A stretch of DNA of 38,421 bases from the IMG/VR virus record IMGVR_UViG_2703718837_000008, positions 1 to 38,421 of that record. One strand, given 5' to 3'. The DNA is from a virus. Taxonomy: Duplodnaviria > Heunggongvirae > Uroviricota > Caudoviricetes. The notes under the pieces are model-generated. The model was not told where the DNA came from. It saw nothing but the letters and a program-made list of their open reading frames with translations, and did no database searches. Shown here in pieces: positions 4,693 through 15,987 of this stretch (position 1 is the stretch's first letter; each line of letters starts with the position of its first letter). Position numbers and translations under genes: made by a program.

Positions 4693-4896
4693 TTACGGCG
4701 CTGTTTTTAATCCTGCCGGGATTTCGTTATTATCCTGGTGAATAACTTTATCGACCGGATAACAGTTACCGGGAATTTTCTGTTCCGCTGCGGCAGCCGT
4801 GCATTCTTTCATTGAACCGTAAATGTCAATAACCAAGTCAACAGGCTCGCCCGTATTAAGAAAAACTGTCAGAGTGAGAGCAATTGCTGTATTCAT
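4693..4896 (-). CDS. Small membrane protein, YdfD-like by position (downstream of dicB)
   Basis: 67 aa from ATG at 4896, which overlaps the dicB stop (ATGA). Hydrophobic N-terminus (MNTAIALTLTVFL). Occupies the same position as ydfD in the K-12 Qin prophage. Confidence 0.45.
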   Translation of the reverse strand: MNTAIALTLTVFLNTGEPVDLVIDIYGSMKECTAAAAEQKIPGNCYPVDKVIHQDNNEIPAGLKTAP

Positions 4897-5081
4897 TGCC
4901 AGCATCCTTTTTGCATCGGGCGTAAACGTGCCAGTATTGAAAGAATGCATATTTTATTTAATAGCTCTCGTTCGTGTTTTCTCTTATTAATGGCATCTTC
5001 AGTAAATGCAGGGTTACTGATTTTGACACCAATTTCAAAACAACCTTCAGACGTATTAACGTTTGGTAATAACGTTTCCAT
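4893..5081 (-). CDS. dicB: Cell division inhibitor DicB
   Basis: 62-aa product METLLPNVNTSEGCFEIGVKISNPAFTEDAINKRKHERELLNKICILSILARLRPMQKGCWQ is near-identical to my recollection of K-12 DicB (62 aa). The ORF track extends it upstream, but the conserved length and the DicF spacing support the internal start at 5081. Confidence 0.85.
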   Translation of the reverse strand: METLLPNVNTSEGCFEIGVKISNPAFTEDAINKRKHERELLNKICILSILARLRPMQKGCWQ

Positions 5082-5250
5082 TATCGCGTCCTCAACAATG
5101 AATTTTGTGATGCGGTGCCTGGTGCCTCCAGGTGACGTTAACCAGTTAACAATTAACGCCGGATACAGAGAATCCACCCGTAACACTGTTTTTAGCTTTA
5201 ACTGTTCCGCGTGCGCTGAGCCGCATTCACCGCATCACAAAATTCACTTT

Positions 5251-5308
5251 AAAAAGGGCGGCAGAGCAGTCGCGGAGTAAAACTGATACCGCCAAACGCC
5301 ACCAGAAA
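5251..5308 (-). ncRNA. dicF: DicF small RNA (ftsZ-targeting sRNA)
   Basis: Minus-strand sequence TTTCTGGTGGCGTTTGGCGGTATCAGTTTTACTCCGCGACTGCTCTGCCGCCCTTTTT matches the K-12 DicF sequence as I recall it (1-2 substitutions), ending in a T-run. Lies ~170 nt upstream of dicB, as in Qin. Ends are approximate. Confidence 0.75.
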
Positions 5309-5577
5309 ATTGATAACAGAGGGCGTTGCAGCGGGGTTGTCACTTAAGCGTATGGTCAACCTGACAACCCGGTGTCCTCAACGGGGAAGGAATAACCCCG
5401 CCATACTTACCGCCGCGCCATTTCGCGGAGTGCCACAACCGGAAGCGCACGGTCGACGAAAATTTAACGACAGGCTATCTATAAACCAGCTACCTCGCCG
5501 TACGCTTTCGCGTTGTGTGCCTGCTTTTAACCACGTCAGGCGAGGTGGTTCCTGTTATTCCCCAACAACAAGAAATT

Positions 5578-5585
5578 TGTATAAT
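5578..5585 (+). promoter_or_regulatory. Extended -10 promoter (TGtTATAAT) for the downstream + strand ORF
   Basis: TG at 5578-5579 followed by TATAAT at 5580-5585. Flanked by two 17-nt direct repeats TCCCCAACAAC(A/G)AGAA at 5559-5575 and 5593-5609. GAGAAGA RBS at 5604-5610 precedes a GTG start at 5620. Confidence 0.4.
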
Positions 5586-5619
5586 CCGGATATCCCCAAC
5601 AACGAGAAGAGTACTCAAC

Positions 5620-6075
5620 GTGATAGCAGAACTGTCAGCGGCTATGGCTGCGATAAAGGAGACAGCTGGTCTCGCTAAGGTTATTAATGACGCAAAAACG
5701 GATGCAGAAGTTAAAGCCGCAACTATTGAACTTCAGAACAAACTAATCACGCTTCAGGCGGAATGCTTCTCTCTTTGCGATGCGATCCGCTTTCGTGATG
5801 AAGAGATAATGCATCTCAAAGCAAAAATTGCAGAGACAGAAGATTTTCAGCGACAGGCGGAAGGTTACAAGCTTAACAAGCTTGATTCTGGAACCCTTGT
5901 ATATTCCAAGAAGCAATTTATAGGCGATACTGAGATAACTGTGCATCTTTGCCCACAATGTTTTGGAAAAAAGGCAATATCTGTACTTCAGCCAATGGAA
6001 ATAATGCGCTTTGATGCTCATTTTCGTACTTTTTGCCCCGCTTGCAATAATAAGTTCTGGATGAACTCAAGATAA
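5620..6075 (+). CDS. Hypothetical protein: N-terminal coiled-coil plus C-terminal C4 zinc ribbon
   Basis: ~152 aa from GTG 5620 (ATG at 5644 is an alternative). Heptad-like N-terminus (AAIKETAGLAKVINDAKTDAEVKAATIELQNKLITLQAE...). C-terminus has CPQC...(22 aa)...CPAC. Convergent to the dicB operon and sits in an insertion relative to the K-12 ydfC-dicF junction. Confidence 0.5.
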   Translation: MIAELSAAMAAIKETAGLAKVINDAKTDAEVKAATIELQNKLITLQAECFSLCDAIRFRDEEIMHLKAKIAETEDFQRQAEGYKLNKLDSGTLVYSKKQFIGDTEITVHLCPQCFGKKAISVLQPMEIMRFDAHFRTFCPACNNKFWMNSR

Positions 6076-6210
6076 TTAACCGTTTAAATAAGTTGGGACT
6101 ATCCAGATTTTTAAAGAACGTACCGGATGCTCACCCGTGTCCGGCGCACGCACTCCACCTCACCCGTGGAGAACTCCTTAATTACCAACCTTAGCTTCGT
6201 TGGTTAGCTA

Positions 6211-6429
6211 TTAACGCGGGTATGTAATCATTCTGGCAATGCTTAATGTCGCTGCTTTTTCCAGCCTGGTGATATCCTGCTCCAGAGCGGACAGATTTTC
6301 AGCCTGCTTAGCCCTGGCTTCATTGGCCCATTTCAGATCCTGCGCTGCATTAATTTTCTGGCGCATCCACTCATAAAGTTCATCATCGGTATAGTCTGGC
6401 GCGATGATGACGGGTTCTCGTTTCTGCAT
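6211..6429 (-). CDS. ydfC: YdfC-like small protein
   Basis: 72 aa, same length and position as Qin ydfC (dicA-ydfA-ydfB-ydfC-dicF-dicB order). Assignment is mainly by synteny. Confidence 0.5.
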   Translation of the reverse strand: MQKREPVIIAPDYTDDELYEWMRQKINAAQDLKWANEARAKQAENLSALEQDITRLEKAATLSIARMITYPR

Positions 6430-6458
6430 ACTGATTCCTCGCGGTGCTGTTTCGCTTA

Positions 6459-6587
6459 TCAGCCGTTAGATTTTGCCGAACTGGAAAGCGCCTGTTTAAA
6501 TTCGCTGAAGCTGAGAGTTTCTTCGCCTTCGGCAAGGCCTTCGAAGTATTCTTCGTAAGCCTTTTTCATGATTGTGTCGAAATCCAT
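6459..6587 (-). CDS. ydfB: YdfB-like small protein (42 aa)
   Basis: Not in the ORF track (below its length cutoff). Reverse-strand ORF MDFDTIMKKAYEEYFEGLAEGEETLSFSEFKQALSSSAKSNG with a GGTGAG RBS; its ATG lies 1 nt after the ydfA stop. Matches the 42-aa ydfB size of Qin. Confidence 0.5.
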   Translation of the reverse strand: MDFDTIMKKAYEEYFEGLAEGEETLSFSEFKQALSSSAKSNG

Positions 6588-6588
6588 A

Positions 6589-6744
6589 TCACTCACCTGA
6601 GTTTCTTTCCAGCCAGCGACGGGCACCATTTTCGGTTTTAAACGTTTTGCTTTTGGTATACGTCATCGCGGTGAACGTGCCGTCCTGGTTGGGAAACACG
6701 CCGTACACCAGAGATTCGTTGTTGCCAAGATCGATAGTATCCAT
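6589..6744 (-). CDS. ydfA: YdfA-like small protein (51 aa)
   Basis: Internal Met start MDTIDLGNNESLVYGVFPNQDGTFTAMTYTKSKTFKTENGARRWLERNSGE with GAGG RBS. 51 aa as in Qin ydfA. First gene downstream of the repressor-controlled promoter. Confidence 0.55.
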   Translation of the reverse strand: MDTIDLGNNESLVYGVFPNQDGTFTAMTYTKSKTFKTENGARRWLERNSGE

Positions 6745-6926
6745 GTTGACCTCATTTCCCCTTAACGCCGGGGTAGCGGAACAAAAACCTGCTGCATAGT
6801 TATTAAAGTTGAACCCTGCCGTCATGTTCTTACGCCTCGGGCTGGCTACTTACCCCCTGACCACTGCCTGGTAACTCGAAGTATTGCCCTGCGTTCTGTG
6901 GGACGGGGTGGGTTGGCATGAAAGAA

Positions 6927-6967
6927 ATGATACCCATGGGTATTCAAAAAGTAAATACCCATGGGTA
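6927..6967 (-). promoter_or_regulatory. Predicted promoter of the ydfABC-dicF-dicB operon with two identical 12-bp palindromic operators
   Basis: Perfect palindrome TACCCATGGGTA at 6931-6942 and again at 6956-6967 (25 bp centre to centre). On the minus strand a TTTACT(-35)-17-TATCAT(-10) promoter (plus coordinates 6950-6955 and 6927-6932) overlaps them. Confidence 0.5.
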
Positions 6968-7009
6968 AATTTTTGAAGTATCTTGACTGGTGACTGGTTG
7001 TTTGGTGAG

Positions 7010-7429
7010 TTATGATGCGTTTTGTGCTTTCTTTTTACGGATTTCTTCGTAGATCATATTGTAATACTGTTTTTTCTCTTCAAGAGTTTTTAATAAGTTA
7101 TCCGCTTCACTTTCAGGCAGTTCGTCTAAGAGATCTAAAAAAATACGTTGTCGTGGCGTTAGAACCCTTGTTTCATAATTGGAGGCTGTGTTCGTTGATG
7201 ATGAAACGATACCATCCATCCATCCCCGGGGTAACCCAAAGGACTCTTCTATAATCTCCACCATATCATCAGCGATCCGTTTTTTTCCTTTTTTCCCCTC
7301 TGGGTACAACATTCTTGATACATAAGAAGGCTCGCGACCGATCTTTCTGGCCACGTTAACCGCTTTACCATCGCATTTCTCATCACGAATTTTGATGAGT
7401 TGTTGTCGTCTAAATTCATATTTGTCCAT
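7010..7429 (-). CDS. DicA/CI-like HTH (XRE family) repressor
   Basis: 139 aa from the internal Met at 7429 (MDKYEFRRQQLIKIRDEK...). HTH segment VNVARKIGREPSYVSRML. C-terminus (LTPRQRIFLDLLDELPESEADNLL...) resembles DicA as I recall it. Divergent from a Cro-like gene. The longer ORF-track start at 7471 would run into the operator region. Confidence 0.7.
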   Translation of the reverse strand: MDKYEFRRQQLIKIRDEKCDGKAVNVARKIGREPSYVSRMLYPEGKKGKKRIADDMVEIIEESFGLPRGWMDGIVSSSTNTASNYETRVLTPRQRIFLDLLDELPESEADNLLKTLEEKKQYYNMIYEEIRKKKAQNAS

Positions 7430-7449
7430 AGGTAAATAATAGATGCGAT

Positions 7450-7504
7450 TACCGCAAGGTAAACAACCCAAGGGTATTGACTTTTGTTTACCTGTGGGTA
7501 TTCT
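7450..7504. promoter_or_regulatory. Divergent immunity-switch control region: three TACC-N4-GGTA operators and a rightward promoter
   Basis: TACCGCAAGGTA (7450-7461), AACCCAAGGGTA (7465-7476), TACCTGTGGGTA (7489-7500). TTGACT (7477-7482)-16-TATTCT (7499-7504) reads toward the Cro-like gene, with the third operator overlapping the -10. Confidence 0.55.
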
Positions 7505-7530
7505 TTTGCTGTGTTTACTAAGGAGTAGCT

Positions 7531-7812
7531 ATGGAAGAATTAAGAATATTTCTCAATTCTCTTTCGTCAGATGAACAGCGTATGTTTGCATGTGAGTGTG
7601 GTACTAGCATCGGTTATCTAAGAAAGGCATTGAGTAAAGGTCAAATGTTAGGGGCATCGTTATGTGTCCTTATTGAGCGAGCCAGTAATGGTGAAGTTAC
7701 ACGTCAGCAACTAAGGCCTTTTGATTGGATGAAGATTTGGCCCGAGCTGGAAGATACCAAAACGTTAACACAACCACTTACTAGGAGCTTGATTCATGAA
7801 AATCAAGCATGA
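7531..7812 (+). CDS. Cro/YdaS-like HTH regulator
   Basis: 93 aa. AGGAG RBS. Motif IERASNGEVTRQQLRPFDWMKIWPEL is typical of YdaS/Cro-like prophage regulators. Divergent from the repressor. Confidence 0.65.
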   Translation: MEELRIFLNSLSSDEQRMFACECGTSIGYLRKALSKGQMLGASLCVLIERASNGEVTRQQLRPFDWMKIWPELEDTKTLTQPLTRSLIHENQA

Positions 7813-8221
7813 ACACATCCGCATGGCGATGAATGCCTGGGCGCGTCCTGATGGCGAAAAAGTTCCAGCAGCTGGAATAACCCAGGCTTATTTTGAGTTG
7901 GGTATGACGTTTCCTGAACTGTATGACGACAGCCATCCGGAAGCCCTGGCTCGCAATACCCAGAAAATTTTCCGCTGGATAGAGAAAGACACCCCTGATG
8001 CAGTTGAAAAAATTCAGGCGTTGTTACCAGCGATCGAAAAGGCAATGCCACCTTTGCTGGTGGCCAGAATGCGCAGCCACAGTTCAGCTTATTTTCGGGA
8101 GCTGGTGGAGACGCGGGAGCGATTGGTGAGAGACGCTGATGATTTTGTCGCAGTGGCAATCGCCGGTTTCAATCAGATGAACCGTGGTGGCCCGGCAGGA
8201 AATGCTGTGGCAGTACATTGA
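7796..8221 (+). CDS. YdaT-like (CII-like) protein
   Basis: 141 aa starting MKIKHEHI, which I recall as the YdaT N-terminus of Rac-type prophages. Immediately follows the YdaS-like gene with a short overlap. Confidence 0.5.
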   Translation: MKIKHEHIRMAMNAWARPDGEKVPAAGITQAYFELGMTFPELYDDSHPEALARNTQKIFRWIEKDTPDAVEKIQALLPAIEKAMPPLLVARMRSHSSAYFRELVETRERLVRDADDFVAVAIAGFNQMNRGGPAGNAVAVH

Positions 8222-9833: not shown

Positions 9834-12092
9834 ATGAAACCAGAATACTTAAGAAAAATAGAATCATTGCAACGTGAGGTTGATGATTTCCATCCAGTGC
9901 TAAGAGCGCTTCTACCACGTTTGCCGACTGTTACACATGTTGAATATAAGCAAGGACCATCAGAAAAAGGTGCTGATTTTGTCATAATTAAACGAGATGA
10001 GGCATTAGACGAGGAAATATATATTGGTGTTATTTGTAAAGTTGGAAAGATAATTCAGTCAAATAGTGAGGTTGAACGACAAATAGAAGAGTGTCAATTA
10101 TATCCACGCTTTATTTCTTCTGGCTCTAAGAACATACATTTGAATGAAATTTGGGTTATTACTAATTCATCGATCTCAAATAATGCTCAAGAAAAAATTT
10201 ACTTGAAATTCAAATCTACAAATATAAAATTTATAGAGGGTGAAAAAATATGTTCTTTAATCAGTAAATATTACCCAGAGTTTTGGGATTTCGAATCCAT
10301 TAATTATGAACAATACTTAACAGATACATTGCAAACCATAAGTGATACACCTGAAAGTTCTTTTTTTGGTAGTGTTGGCATAAATAACCTTATTGATAGA
10401 TATGTAAGCAAGGAGGATCATAAAAAACGCAGACACAGGCCGTTAAAACTGTATAGTGTTGTGAGAGCCGAGAGATTTATTTTTTTAGAGGGAACCGTTG
10501 GCTCTGGGAAAAGTACTTTGCTGAAACAGTTAATTAGAAAAATAAAAGAAGAATATTCTTACGAAAAAGACTACATCCTTCCAGTATTTTGTCAATACAA
10601 GGATGTTCTAGAAAAAAAACTTAATGTTGAAAATATAATACAAAGTGTGTTAAGTAAGTACAAAATACAACATGATGGGAATATTTTATTAATTGTTGAT
10701 TCGGTTGATGAAGTAAAGGAATCACTTGAGGAAAGGCAAAACAACTTCAGGGACATTGTAGAGAAAGTATCCAGGAATGATAAAGTTCGATTACTAGTTG
10801 CTTCAAGAATTATGGATTCTCTTCAGGACTATGAAGTTATCGATCAGATGTTTGCAAGATACTCGATAATACCACTTAGCACAGGTCAAATAATCGACTT
10901 TGTAGATAAAATCTGCAATGACATTAAAATAACAAATAAACTTAAAAATGGTATAGAAAAAACACCACTATTTAAGTTCATTCCCAGGACTCCAGTGAGC
11001 GCTATTCTTCTGGCAAGAATACTCTCTGATGAGATTAAAGAATTACCATCTACAATGACAGAACTATACTCAAAATACAGTGAGATAGTATTGGGACGAT
11101 GGGATACATCTAAGGGATTATTATCGCAAACAGAATATGATGTAATAAGTAATATATTAGTAGAAATTGCGATGTTTATGATGGATAACTCTCTAAACTG
11201 CATATCAATTTCAGAAGTGCAGGACATGTTTTTAAATTATTTGGCCAAAAGAAACTTGAATGTTGATGAGGACAAACTTTTCAAAAGACTAATTTATCGC
11301 AGTGAAGTAACAACAGTTAATGTTAGAAGTAATACGTTCTCATTTCTACACAGATCATTCATGGAGTATTTTTACGCTGAAGGACTTAGGAAGCGTGGCC
11401 TAATAGACATAAATGATAATATTTATGATATTTATTGGGCAAATAGTTATTTCTTCTATTTTGGTTTGTTACGAGACAATGAATATCTTATTGATAAAAT
11501 TAATGAACTTAAACCTAGTAACGATAAAACAAGATTTTTAAGGTTGTTTTATAACGGTTCTTTTTATTTGGCTTCATATCTAACTCCGTATAAAAAAATA
11601 ACGAGGGGAGTCCTTTTATCATATATAGATGCAGGTAAATTATATGTTGATATTCTCAAGGGAAATACCGACATCCCGCTGAAGGAATTTTCACCAGTAG
11701 CTCTTCTTTGTATTTTCACAAAGTGTTTAAGTAACAATTACGCATATGATTTTTTCAAATCTGCCTTGGAAGACTTGTCAGTTCAAATTGAACAATATGA
11801 GGAAATTGGTGAACATATTGATTATGCACGTTTCTTCATAGCATCAACACTGAATGAGCTCGGGGATAAATCCGCATTTGATAGCTTAGTGGAAAAAAAT
11901 AAATTAGGTGTTTTGATTAATTTAGGGATAACTCACGTTACAGACGACTCAGGACTACTTAGCACTACGGTTGATAAGTACCTGAAAAAATTCAATAAAA
12001 AAGTACGAAGTAACCATGATATGTCTAATTATATATCTAAGTTATATGAGGAATCTACAGGTTCCTTACGTACAAACCTGCAAATTCAATAA
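9834..12092 (+). CDS. NACHT-type STAND NTPase with N-terminal PD-(D/E)xK-like nuclease domain (bacterial NLR-like antiphage candidate)
   Basis: 752 aa. Walker A FLEGTVGSGKST (aa ~217-228). Walker B with NACHT signature ILLIVDSVDE (aa ~285-293). NACHT winged-helix motif SFLHRSFMEYFYAEG (aa ~502-516). N-terminal GADFVIIK...EIYIGVICK resembles an Mrr-like D...E.K nuclease core. Strongly AT-rich relative to the flanking phage genes, with its own promoter and a 13-bp stem hairpin after the stop. Confidence 0.7.
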   Translation: MKPEYLRKIESLQREVDDFHPVLRALLPRLPTVTHVEYKQGPSEKGADFVIIKRDEALDEEIYIGVICKVGKIIQSNSEVERQIEECQLYPRFISSGSKNIHLNEIWVITNSSISNNAQEKIYLKFKSTNIKFIEGEKICSLISKYYPEFWDFESINYEQYLTDTLQTISDTPESSFFGSVGINNLIDRYVSKEDHKKRRHRPLKLYSVVRAERFIFLEGTVGSGKSTLLKQLIRKIKEEYSYEKDYILPVFCQYKDVLEKKLNVENIIQSVLSKYKIQHDGNILLIVDSVDEVKESLEERQNNFRDIVEKVSRNDKVRLLVASRIMDSLQDYEVIDQMFARYSIIPLSTGQIIDFVDKICNDIKITNKLKNGIEKTPLFKFIPRTPVSAILLARILSDEIKELPSTMTELYSKYSEIVLGRWDTSKGLLSQTEYDVISNILVEIAMFMMDNSLNCISISEVQDMFLNYLAKRNLNVDEDKLFKRLIYRSEVTTVNVRSNTFSFLHRSFMEYFYAEGLRKRGLIDINDNIYDIYWANSYFFYFGLLRDNEYLIDKINELKPSNDKTRFLRLFYNGSFYLASYLTPYKKITRGVLLSYIDAGKLYVDILKGNTDIPLKEFSPVALLCIFTKCLSNNYAYDFFKSALEDLSVQIEQYEEIGEHIDYARFFIASTLNELGDKSAFDSLVEKNKLGVLINLGITHVTDDSGLLSTTVDKYLKKFNKKVRSNHDMSNYISKLYEESTGSLRTNLQIQ

Positions 12093-12550: not shown

Positions 12551-12704
12551 TTTTATATTGGCGAGGTGACGTGAGTTAAGTAGAATTGCTGCGGGTGCTT
12601 GAGGCTATCTGCCTCAGGCATGAACACCAAAGGCAGATAGAGAAAAGCCCCAGTTAACATTACGCGTCCTGCAAGACGCTTAACATTAATCTGAGGCTCA
12701 ATCT

Positions 12705-12917
12705 ATGAACGGCAAATCTAGGTTAGCCTCTTACGTGCCGAAAGGCAAGGAGAAGCAGGCTATGAAGCAGCAAAAGGCGATGTTAATCGCCCTGATCGTC
12801 ATCTGTTTAACCGTCATAGTGACGGCACTGGTAACGAGGAAAGACCTCTGCGAGGTACGAATCCGAACCGGCCAGACGGAGGTCGCTGTCTTCACAGCTT
12901 ACGAACCTGAGGAGTAA
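12705..12917 (+). CDS. mok-like overlapping reading frame (translational coupling frame for hok)
   Basis: 70-aa ORF in the same frame that contains the entire hok ORF, as in hok/mok loci. Confidence 0.4.
   Translation: MNGKSRLASYVPKGKEKQAMKQQKAMLIALIVICLTVIVTALVTRKDLCEVRIRTGQTEVAVFTAYEPEE
12762..12917 (+). CDS. hok: Hok/Gef family type I toxin
   Basis: 51-aa product MKQQKAMLIALIVICLTVIVTALVTRKDLCEVRIRTGQTEVAVFTAYEPEE matches the HokD/RelF sequence as I recall it. Followed by fbi-like 3' complementarity and a terminator. Confidence 0.85.
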   Translation: MKQQKAMLIALIVICLTVIVTALVTRKDLCEVRIRTGQTEVAVFTAYEPEE

Positions 12918-15677: not shown

Positions 15678-15753
15678 GGCCCTTTAGCTCAGTGGTGAGA
15701 GCGAGCGACTCATAATCGCCAGGTCGCTGGTTCAAATCCAGCAAGGGCCACCA
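15678..15753 (+). tRNA. tRNA with CAU anticodon, probably tRNA-Ile2 (lysidine type; Met not excluded)
   Basis: 76 nt, manually folded. Acceptor GGCCCTT/AAGGGCC, D-stem GCTC/GAGC, anticodon loop CTCATAA, T-loop TTCAAAT, 3' CCA encoded. Resembles E. coli ileX as I recall it. Confidence 0.8.
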
Positions 15754-15754
15754 A

Positions 15755-15831
15755 CCGCCACTAGCTCATCAGGAAAGAGCGTCAACCCTTTAAGTTGAGT
15801 GTGCGAGGTTCGAGTCCCCGGTGGCGGTCCA
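15755..15831 (+). tRNA. Atypical tRNA-like gene, anticodon UUU by loop position (Lys-like) with C33
   Basis: 77 nt, manually folded. Acceptor CCGCCAC/GTGGCGG, D-stem GCTC/GAGC, perfect anticodon stem TCAAC/GTTGA, loop CCTTTAA, T-loop TTCGAGT with one T-stem mismatch, CCA encoded. C at position 33 and C1 are unusual. Confidence 0.5.
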
Positions 15832-15833
15832 GT

Positions 15834-15909
<76 letters not shown>

Positions 15910-15912
15910 TAT

Positions 15913-15987
<75 letters not shown>

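Follow-up and report, generated by a model that had tools for sequence, protein, structure and literature searches.

Does one repressor hold both the lytic switch and a division-inhibitor operon in the prophage sequence recorded in IMG/VR as IMGVR_UViG_2703718837_000008? The window analyzed here is this whole stretch of 38,421 bp, and the question is raised by 5 short dyads of the form TACC-N4-GGTA around a leftward repressor gene, 2 of them at a promoter pointing toward ydfABC-dicF-dicB and 3 in the spacer shared with a divergent cro-like gene. An earlier reading, made from the letters and their open reading frames (ORFs) without database searches and called here the sequence-only reading, had proposed that these dyads are operators split between 2 promoters under a single repressor. 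We put the probability at about 0.85 that the region is a lambdoid (Rac/Qin-like) prophage immunity region working like the right and left operators (OR and OL) of lambda, and the 5 repeats are very probably the repressor binding sites that shut the promoter of the lytic switch and that of the division-inhibitor operon.

Probable operator sites, predicted promoters, and the repressor

The window was scanned for the motif TACCNNNNGGTA and compared with 100 shuffles, and a scan allowing 1 mismatch was also run. Exact matches were identified at 4 positions (6931, 6956, 7450, and 7489), all inside 570 bp, against 0.19 expected by shuffling, and 0 of the 100 shuffles reached 4. With 1 mismatch allowed, 13 matches were found against 7.0 expected, and the 8 lying outside the operator region are at chance level, so no other site in the prophage is credible. 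The sequence-only reading had proposed searching the rest of the prophage for the consensus, a search that thus returned no extra sites above chance, and the 5 sites it had listed are all where it had placed them, 4 exact and the fifth with 1 mismatch.

On the right-hand side, 3 dyads sit in the 101-bp spacer between the divergent repressor and cro-like genes. The OR1-like site (TACCTGTGGGTA, 7489..7500) covers the spacer and the first 2 bases of the -10 hexamer of a predicted rightward promoter (PR-like, TTGACT-16-TATTCT, 7477..7504, plus strand) that would drive the cro-like and ydaT-like genes. The OR2-like site (AACCCAAGGGTA, 7465..7476), which has 1 arm mismatch on the side of the repressor promoter, lies between the PR -35 and the -35 of that promoter, and the OR3-like site (TACCGCAAGGTA, 7450..7461) overlaps the latter -35. 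This predicted repressor promoter (PRM-like, TTTACC-16-TATTAT, 7436..7463, minus strand) stands directly before the repressor gene and was absent from the earlier list. The sequence-only reading had assigned all 3 right-hand sites to TTGACT-16-TATTCT; 2 of them do flank the PR-like promoter, whereas the third overlaps the PRM-like -35 instead. Measured from the repressor start, the 3 centers lie approximately 65.5, 41.5, and 26.5 bp upstream, the 41.5-bp value being that of the OR2-like site and the 26.5-bp value that of the OR3-like site. The positions of lambda OR1, OR2, and OR3 relative to PRM are roughly comparable, with -65, -41, and -26 here.

On the left-hand side, 2 identical perfect palindromes overlap and abut a predicted leftward promoter (PL-like, TTTACT-17-TATCAT, 6927..6955, minus strand, predicted start near 6917-6920), as had been claimed from the sequence. 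The OL1-like site (TACCCATGGGTA, 6931..6942) covers the spacer and the first 2 bases of the -10, a position and design that recur in 14 relatives, and the OL2-like site (TACCCATGGGTA, 6956..6967) abuts the -35 at 25 bp center to center from OL1. Both hexamer pairs named earlier, TTTACT-17-TATCAT and TTGACT-16-TATTCT, were recovered by the consensus scan that also gave the PRM-like promoter, and support for the promoters comes from geometry conserved in relatives, not from the scan score. In all downstream pairs of the relatives described below, the first site is followed at once by a -35-like hexamer, then by approximately 13 nt and the second site, the terminal TA of which opens a -10 of the form TAnnnT (TATATT, TATCTT, TATTCT, TATGCT, TATAGT, TAATAT, and others). 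The left (GGGTATCAT) and right (GGGTATTCT) promoters of the window share this succession of site, -35, site, and -10. Further, the PRM-like -10 ends 6 nt ahead of the repressor ATG (7429) with no Shine-Dalgarno sequence between them, and a leaderless repressor mRNA is therefore predicted; leaderless transcripts have been reported for lambda cI and paaR2 (PMC8630535).

The repressor gene (7010..7429, minus strand) encodes 139 amino acids (aa), with an N-terminal lambda-cI/Xre-type helix-turn-helix (HTH) domain at residues 1-72 and no S24 peptidase domain. The protein falls in PHROG 5736, annotated as "transcriptional regulator," and a Pfam search gave no domain, PF00717 (S24) included. Residues 1-86 share 65% identity with the N-terminus of phage mEp043 cI over 86 aa (E=1e-38), the N-domain being 65-76% identical to mEp043 cI and the LexA-family prophage repressors; for residues 87-139, the match is with the C-terminal end of phage Tritos CI; between the repressor N-domain and Tritos CI, nothing beyond a generic HTH alignment was found. 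The NCBIfam DicA model (PRK09706) scored 24.1 bits against a cut-off of 101, a weak match of repressor residues 84-136 only to the last 50 residues of the model, leaving the DicA HTH domain uncovered. The term "DicA-like" used in the sequence-only reading thus holds for the C-terminal tail only, the DNA-binding domain being of the mEp043 cI type. Because relatives of the N-domain in a large protein database are mostly fused to an S24/LexA peptidase (PF00717; proteins of 221-242 aa) and the tail here is of the DicA/Tritos type, the repressor is, by these matches, a chimera of an mEp043-cI-type HTH and a DicA-type tail without a cleavage module.

In the AlphaFold model of the repressor (mean predicted local distance difference test score 86.6), 4 helices make up the N-domain, residues 76-87 form a disordered linker, and the C-terminus folds as a long helical hairpin. 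Foldseek matched the N-domain to C.Esp1396I, HigA, and the N-terminal domains of lambda cI and TP901-1 CI, with template modeling (TM) scores of 0.5-0.7 (normalized to target length) at 2-4 A over 66-82 aligned positions, and the lambda-cI structure 1lli was among these fold matches. The best whole-chain match was the repressor of Salmonella phage SPC32H, which was weak (E about 1e-3, 17-24% identity), and a sequence search of the PDB gave no significant match.

Conservation of the motif with the DNA-binding domain

We compared 26 independent loci, comprising 23 loci of different species, each encoding a repressor relative, together with phage mEp043, a Mannheimia phage, and the window itself. 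They fall into Enterobacterales, Pasteurellaceae, Aeromonas, Burkholderiales, Stenotrophomonas, Xanthobacteraceae, and phage mEp043, with hosts including Yersinia, Edwardsiella, Klebsiella, Brenneria, Leclercia, Aeromonas, Mannheimia, Paraburkholderia, Herbaspirillum, Alcaligenes, Stenotrophomonas, and a Xanthobacteraceae metagenome-assembled genome. Within 76 bp ahead of the repressor ATG, 22 of the 26 loci have at least 2 sites and 14 have all 3, against a chance expectation of about 0.03 sites per locus. Their offsets from the ATG are fixed at about -72, -47, and -32. The -72/-73 site is present in 24 of the 26 loci, the -32/-33 (OR3-type) site is conserved in relatives, and the -47/-48 site, wherever it was detected, has an imperfect arm (GGTT or GGTC), which by sequence is a conserved weak site, as expected of an OR2-type operator. 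Downstream pairs with a spacing of 24-26 bp were identified in 14 of the 26 loci. Over the rest of the 86 kb of these loci, 21 matches were counted where 33 were expected, so that the motif is no commoner there than by chance. The functional lambdoid phage mEp043, which is N dependent, has its pair ahead of gene N, at an authentic PL/OL position. The OL/OR-like layout put forward in the sequence-only reading is thus supported by motif, site number, spacing, and promoter overlap across the 26 loci, as far as sequence comparison can indicate.

Taken together, 90 sites give the profile wTACC-YRYR-GGTAw, in which the arms hardly vary and the center does. In the low-GC Mannheimia phage, the centers are AT rich (TTAT, AAAA, AAAT, and TAAT) and the arms constant, which argues that the arms are what is read. 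We also considered a Z-DNA/Z-alpha idea, raised by a weak ADAR1 Z-alpha match (E=0.075) and by the Y-R-Y-R centers; it was rejected because the Mannheimia centers are AT rich and nonalternating and because the fold search gives an Xre/cI HTH.

The motif is kept whether the C-terminus of the repressor is of the S24/LexA type, as in mEp043 and most relatives, or of the DicA type. In most loci, the motif is accompanied by the Cro homologue, and 5 Klebsiella loci (L008, L010, and L012-L014) without a Cro homologue keep the N-domain, the site at about -73, and the downstream pair; the site at about -33 is found in 3 of them, and the second site of the L012 pair has 2 arm mismatches. Because the motif is kept across different C-termini and without Cro, it tracks the N-domain of the repressor. 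The same 5 Klebsiella loci lack the middle (-47) site as well as the Cro homologue, which suggests that the middle site and this type of Cro travel together.

Comparison with heteroimmune prophages links the left-hand sites to the same domain. The window and phage Tritos share 97% identity over 6400-6918, 77% in the repressor tail (7010-7126), and 95% beginning at 7784 (compared to 8300); they are unrelated over 6919-7009, which holds the left operators and promoter, and over 7127-7783, which holds the N-domain, the right operators, and cro. Both unshared blocks carry TACC-N4-GGTA here and GTAC-type repeats in Tritos, and Rac carries the published RacR consensus in both corresponding places (PMC9638921). 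Homology with heteroimmune prophages starts at 6918, and this left joint coincides with the predicted start of the leftward transcript. These mosaic blocks amount to a natural swap experiment, by which the left sites are linked to the DNA-binding domain.

In K-12 Rac (L001, about 2624-2664), 2 RacR-consensus sites, TAGGT-aat-GCCTAA and TAGGC-tat-GCCTAA, were observed downstream of racR, where they overlap a leftward TTGACA-17-TATAGT promoter beside a conserved leader. The RacR operator paper covers only the operators between racR and ydaS and never mentions kilR, ydaG, or ydaF (PMC9638921). Given these downstream consensus sites and the restriction of the published operators to the intergenic region, Rac seems to have an undescribed OL/PL equivalent.

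Variation within the sites was analyzed in 80 near-identical modules (L028-L107) with 99-100% identical repressors. Center columns segregate at 15 of 20 (75%), compared with 52 of 590 other columns (9%; odds ratio 31, p=9e-12) and 8% of arm columns. Nucleotide diversity is 0.124 at the centers, 0.013 at the arms, and 0.015 at third-codon positions. Transitions account for 15 of the 17 minor alleles at the centers, and center haplotypes differ even between otherwise identical backgrounds of approximately 760 bp. The OR3-like arm variant AGTA is present in 27 of the 80 modules.

Proposed mechanism and rival explanations

From this geometry and from lambda, Qin, and CP-933P, we infer how binding, repression, activation of PRM, the leaderless start, and induction would proceed. 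Dimers of the 139-aa repressor would bind the 12-14-bp dyads (consensus wTACC-N4-GGTAw) through the N-terminal lambda-cI-type HTH. The sites at 7489-7500 and 7465-7476 stand on either side of the -35 of the cro/ydaT promoter and extend over its -10, and their occupation would block the lytic switch. The middle site, centered 41.5 bp upstream of the probably leaderless start, is where lambda cI activates PRM, and a repressor bound at 7450-7461, over the -35 of its own promoter, would bring about autorepression. The left sites (6956-6967 and 6931-6942), with the same bracketing design, would repress the leftward promoter of a ydfABC-dicF-dicB-recE early operon. All of these sites are probably used by the Cro-like protein as well. 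Induction would come from an antirepressor or a spontaneous flip of the switch, as for DicA, and RecA-stimulated cleavage is not expected, given the lack of an S24 domain.

Several observations weigh against this mechanism. The promoter scan taken alone is not above chance, with 3 promoters found and 2.6 expected from shuffles, and the PR -35 is weak in some natural variants, such as TTGGTT in the enteropathogenic Escherichia coli copy. OR2 and OR3 are 15 bp apart center to center, unlike in lambda, and cooperativity and activation of PRM as known from lambda may therefore not apply here. The path from PL to dicF and dicB is crossed by a plus-strand gene at 5515-6075, and neither an antirepressor gene nor a LexA box was found in the window. 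In a literature search, 6 operator-variant strings of these sites were found in no phage regulatory paper of the library searched.

If the Cro/YdaS-like protein or some other factor were the primary user of the sites, in place of the repressor encoded leftward, the co-occurrence of the Cro homologue with the motif in most loci would be explained, and Cro of lambda and YdaS of CP-933P do bind the same region as the repressor (PMC8630535). We consider this quite improbable, since the 5 Klebsiella loci without a Cro homologue keep TACC-N4-GGTA, and the motif always accompanies the N-domain, regardless of which C-terminal domain is attached; moreover, shared use by Cro is already part of the repressor model, so that it is hardly an alternative. 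The lack of enrichment of promoter-like matches over shuffles, together with the cryptic state of many such prophages, could also be taken to mean that the repeats are chance palindromes or nonfunctional remnants of a decaying prophage. That explanation is effectively refuted by clustering and positional conservation: 4 exact sites were found against 0.19 expected, their positions are conserved across several orders of Proteobacteria, and conservation of the arms equals that of coding positions (8% of columns segregating, against 75% at the centers).

The left pair may have a second role in addition to that of operator. Read in the sense of the repressor transcript, OL2 and OL1 form a hairpin followed by UCAUUUCUUUCAU (6918..6967, minus strand), with a 16-bp stem, a 5-nt loop, and the U-rich tract directly after it, and this is a candidate intrinsic terminator of the repressor gene. 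Transcripts of the repressor gene would thereby end at the point where leftward transcription begins, short of the toxic ydfABC-dicF-dicB operon. In lambda, the t-imm terminator ahead of OL/PL is a functional analogue of such a terminator. Because the repressor gene and the toxic operon are co-oriented, insulation of some form is needed, and the hairpin is the sole terminator-like match between the repressor stop codon and the leftward operon. Its folding energy of -24.6 kcal/mol (z=-6.2) was equaled by 0 of 200 shuffles, although identical palindromic operators are automatically complementary to each other. All 12 site-to-site pairs are kept, with G.U allowed on the repressor-sense strand, in 78 of the 80 near-identical modules, and 3 double changes (CATA/TATG, CACG/CGTG, and TATG/CATA) restore Watson-Crick pairing while breaking the single palindromes. 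Few independent events lie behind these compensatory changes; centers that accept mainly transitions (Y-R-Y-R) raise the chance of apparent compensation, and template switching at quasi-palindromes could yield such pairs without selection. Among 14 independent relatives, the centers are complementary at 29 of 56 positions against 22 expected by permutation (P about 0.02). The T-rich tail is nevertheless absent from most of the distant pair-bearing relatives (Yersinia, Aeromonas, Paraburkholderia, Stenotrophomonas, and Mannheimia), and the Klebsiella loci with T-rich tails have poor site-to-site complementarity. With the evidence divided in this way, we advance the dual operator/terminator role tentatively and lean somewhat against it.

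The hypervariability of the centers may reflect selection that tunes affinity, mutation templated from one site to another, or a locally raised mutability. Joining both observations, the left 37-bp element could be a 3-in-1 device, in which 2 operators and PL are joined by a terminator of the repressor gene at PL +1 that is kept by compensatory evolution, and the centers serve as a fast-evolving tuning knob, a combination that we regard as rather unlikely. Such a knob would be driven by selection or by templated mutation, and through it the affinity of the repressor would be set among prophages of one immunity type that reside together.

Neighboring genes and comparison with known systems

The immunity region as proposed above is flanked by genes whose identities (DicF, DicB, YdfA-like, and Cro/YdaS-like) the sequence-only reading had named correctly, as judged by Rfam, Pfam, and PHROG matches. 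The leftward operon ydfABC-dicF-dicB (4893..6744, minus strand), presumed to be under the PL-like promoter, comprises a ydfA-like gene (DUF1391/YdfA-like, 6589-6744, ATG at 6744), ydfB-like (6459-6629) and ydfC-like (6211-6429) genes, the DicF RNA (5256-5307; Rfam, 73.5 bits), and dicB (4893-5081; Pfam, E=6e-36), all on the minus strand, and a RecE-like exonuclease is also encoded to the left of the repressor. As at Qin dicA, the repressor gene is followed by a co-oriented, operator-bearing promoter for ydfABC-dicF-dicB, and by analogy with Qin (PMC10448788) we infer that dicF and dicB are cotranscribed and depend on the PL-like promoter. The antisense gene at 5515-6075 (plus strand) encodes 186 aa (phrog_1244) and lies between the ydfC-like gene and DicF, in the position of sieB in Rac.

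Between the PL start and the ydfA-like ATG lies a noncoding leader of approximately 175 nt (6745..6917, minus strand), which is C rich near its 5' end and common to heteroimmune prophages (Rac and Tritos), with DNA matches in 3,582 of 5,426 E. coli genomes. The module itself is present at 80% coverage or more in 822 of 5,426 complete E. coli genomes. Counterparts of the leader were observed at 2460-2609 in L001 (K-12 Rac) and at about 1960-2118 in L003. A structured RNA of the put-like or riboswitch kind was rejected, as the leader folds no better than shuffles (z=+1.4), and a conserved small ORF was rejected, as neither Rac nor the most frequent E. coli variant has its ATG (6919). Rfam gave no match to the leader, either at the gathering threshold over the whole window or permissively over 6650-7010, where only spurious microRNA-type matches to the palindrome hairpin appeared. 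The leader may be a Rho-utilization element or another processivity element.

To the right, the Cro-like gene (7531..7812, plus strand; 93 aa, phrog_35) is related to YdaS; its product is approximately 73% identical to mEp043 Cro and 31% to Rac YdaS and scored 26.1 bits with the Pfam YdaS_toxin model, below the cut-off of 30. It is followed by a YdaT/CII-like gene (7796-8221, plus strand; Pfam YdaT_toxin, 39.9 bits against a cut-off of 21), the ATG of which (7796) is spanned by a perfect YdaT-box (TTGATTCATGAAAATCAA, TTGATT-N6-AATCAA, 7789..7806), a type of site published in PMC11879457 and PMC9986795. This box matches the footprinted sites of Rac, with 1 base different, and of CP-933P, and 5 bp upstream of the box is the right-hand mosaic joint with Tritos (7784). 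Farther to the right, we observed a sok antitoxin RNA of the hok/sok type (12593-12767), a cluster of 4 tRNA genes (15678-15984), and a 752-aa ORF (9834-12092, plus strand) that comes after a DUF977 gene, occupies the position of the replication region, and may be a cargo or defense gene.

The module is predicted to gate the division inhibitors DicB and DicF and the early genes on the RecE side, and regulation of dicB and dicF becomes testable in pathogenic strains, where DicF affects virulence. With the consensus wTACC-N4-GGTAw and the domain that would read it, immunity groups should be predictable, and homoimmunity with mEp043-type phages is expected despite a different induction chemistry. 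The relatives also provide a natural domain-swap series, in which 1 DNA-binding domain is carried on an S24 tail or on a DicA-type tail.

The closest arrangement described is that of Qin, with operators both in the dicA-dicC interval and at dicBp; DicA represses dicBp 22-fold, and the antirepressor Rem relieves this repression (PMC10448788). The window shares with Qin DicA/DicC a short noncleavable repressor, a divergent Cro-like gene, intergenic and downstream operators, and a promoter for ydfABC-dicF-dicB; in contrast, the DNA-binding domain and operator sequence here are unrelated to those of DicA, and 3 operators have been described at dicBp (PMC10448788) against 2 at the left here. In CP-933P, PR, PRM, and PL share operators bound by PaaR2 and YdaS, as established by electrophoretic mobility shift assays, footprinting, and reporters (PMC8630535), and the intergenic RacR operators of Rac have been footprinted (PMC9638921). 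Both prophages resemble the window in having a Rac-like early region and a YdaT (CII-like) gene whose ATG is covered by the published YdaT-box, whereas their operators are GTTTAGTAA-type repeats in CP-933P and (T/A)TAGGC-n3-GCCTA(T/A) in Rac (PMC9638921), their repressor N-domains are unrelated to the one here, and the Cro-like protein here is only weakly YdaS-like.

Lambda likewise has a tripartite right operator between divergent promoters, a second cluster at the early-left promoter, an HTH N-domain, and a leaderless start such as is predicted here. The operators here differ from those of lambda in being 12-14 bp long, with 4-bp arms and a nonspecific 4-bp center; further, there are 2 left sites and not 3, OR2 and OR3 are 15 bp apart, the repressor has no S24 autocleavage domain, and the leftward operon is without an N gene. 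The SPC32H repressor Rep is also a short HTH repressor without a protease domain and is inactivated by the antirepressor Ant (PDB 5D50 and 5D4Z), whereas no antirepressor was identified in this window.

Phage mEp043 shares TACC-N4-GGTA and the same geometry of OR (3 sites) and OL (2 sites, 25 bp apart), although its cI has a C-terminal S24 peptidase domain of the SOS-cleavable type and its OL/PL drives gene N. A literature search returned no published study of mEp043 immunity or operators. From the shared N-domain, Cro, and site geometry, the same immunity specificity is predicted for the window and mEp043, and on these sequence grounds the mEp043-type cI DNA-binding domain and its TACC-N4-GGTA operators form an unnamed group, defined here. 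Conceptually, the locus adds nothing beyond lambda, Qin, and CP-933P, except for the terminator role or the hypervariable centers, should these be functional. Since the layout is established in Qin, CP-933P, and, for the intergenic operators, Rac, and the operator strings were found in no phage regulatory paper of the library searched, the locus would combine a known arrangement with a new recognition specificity.

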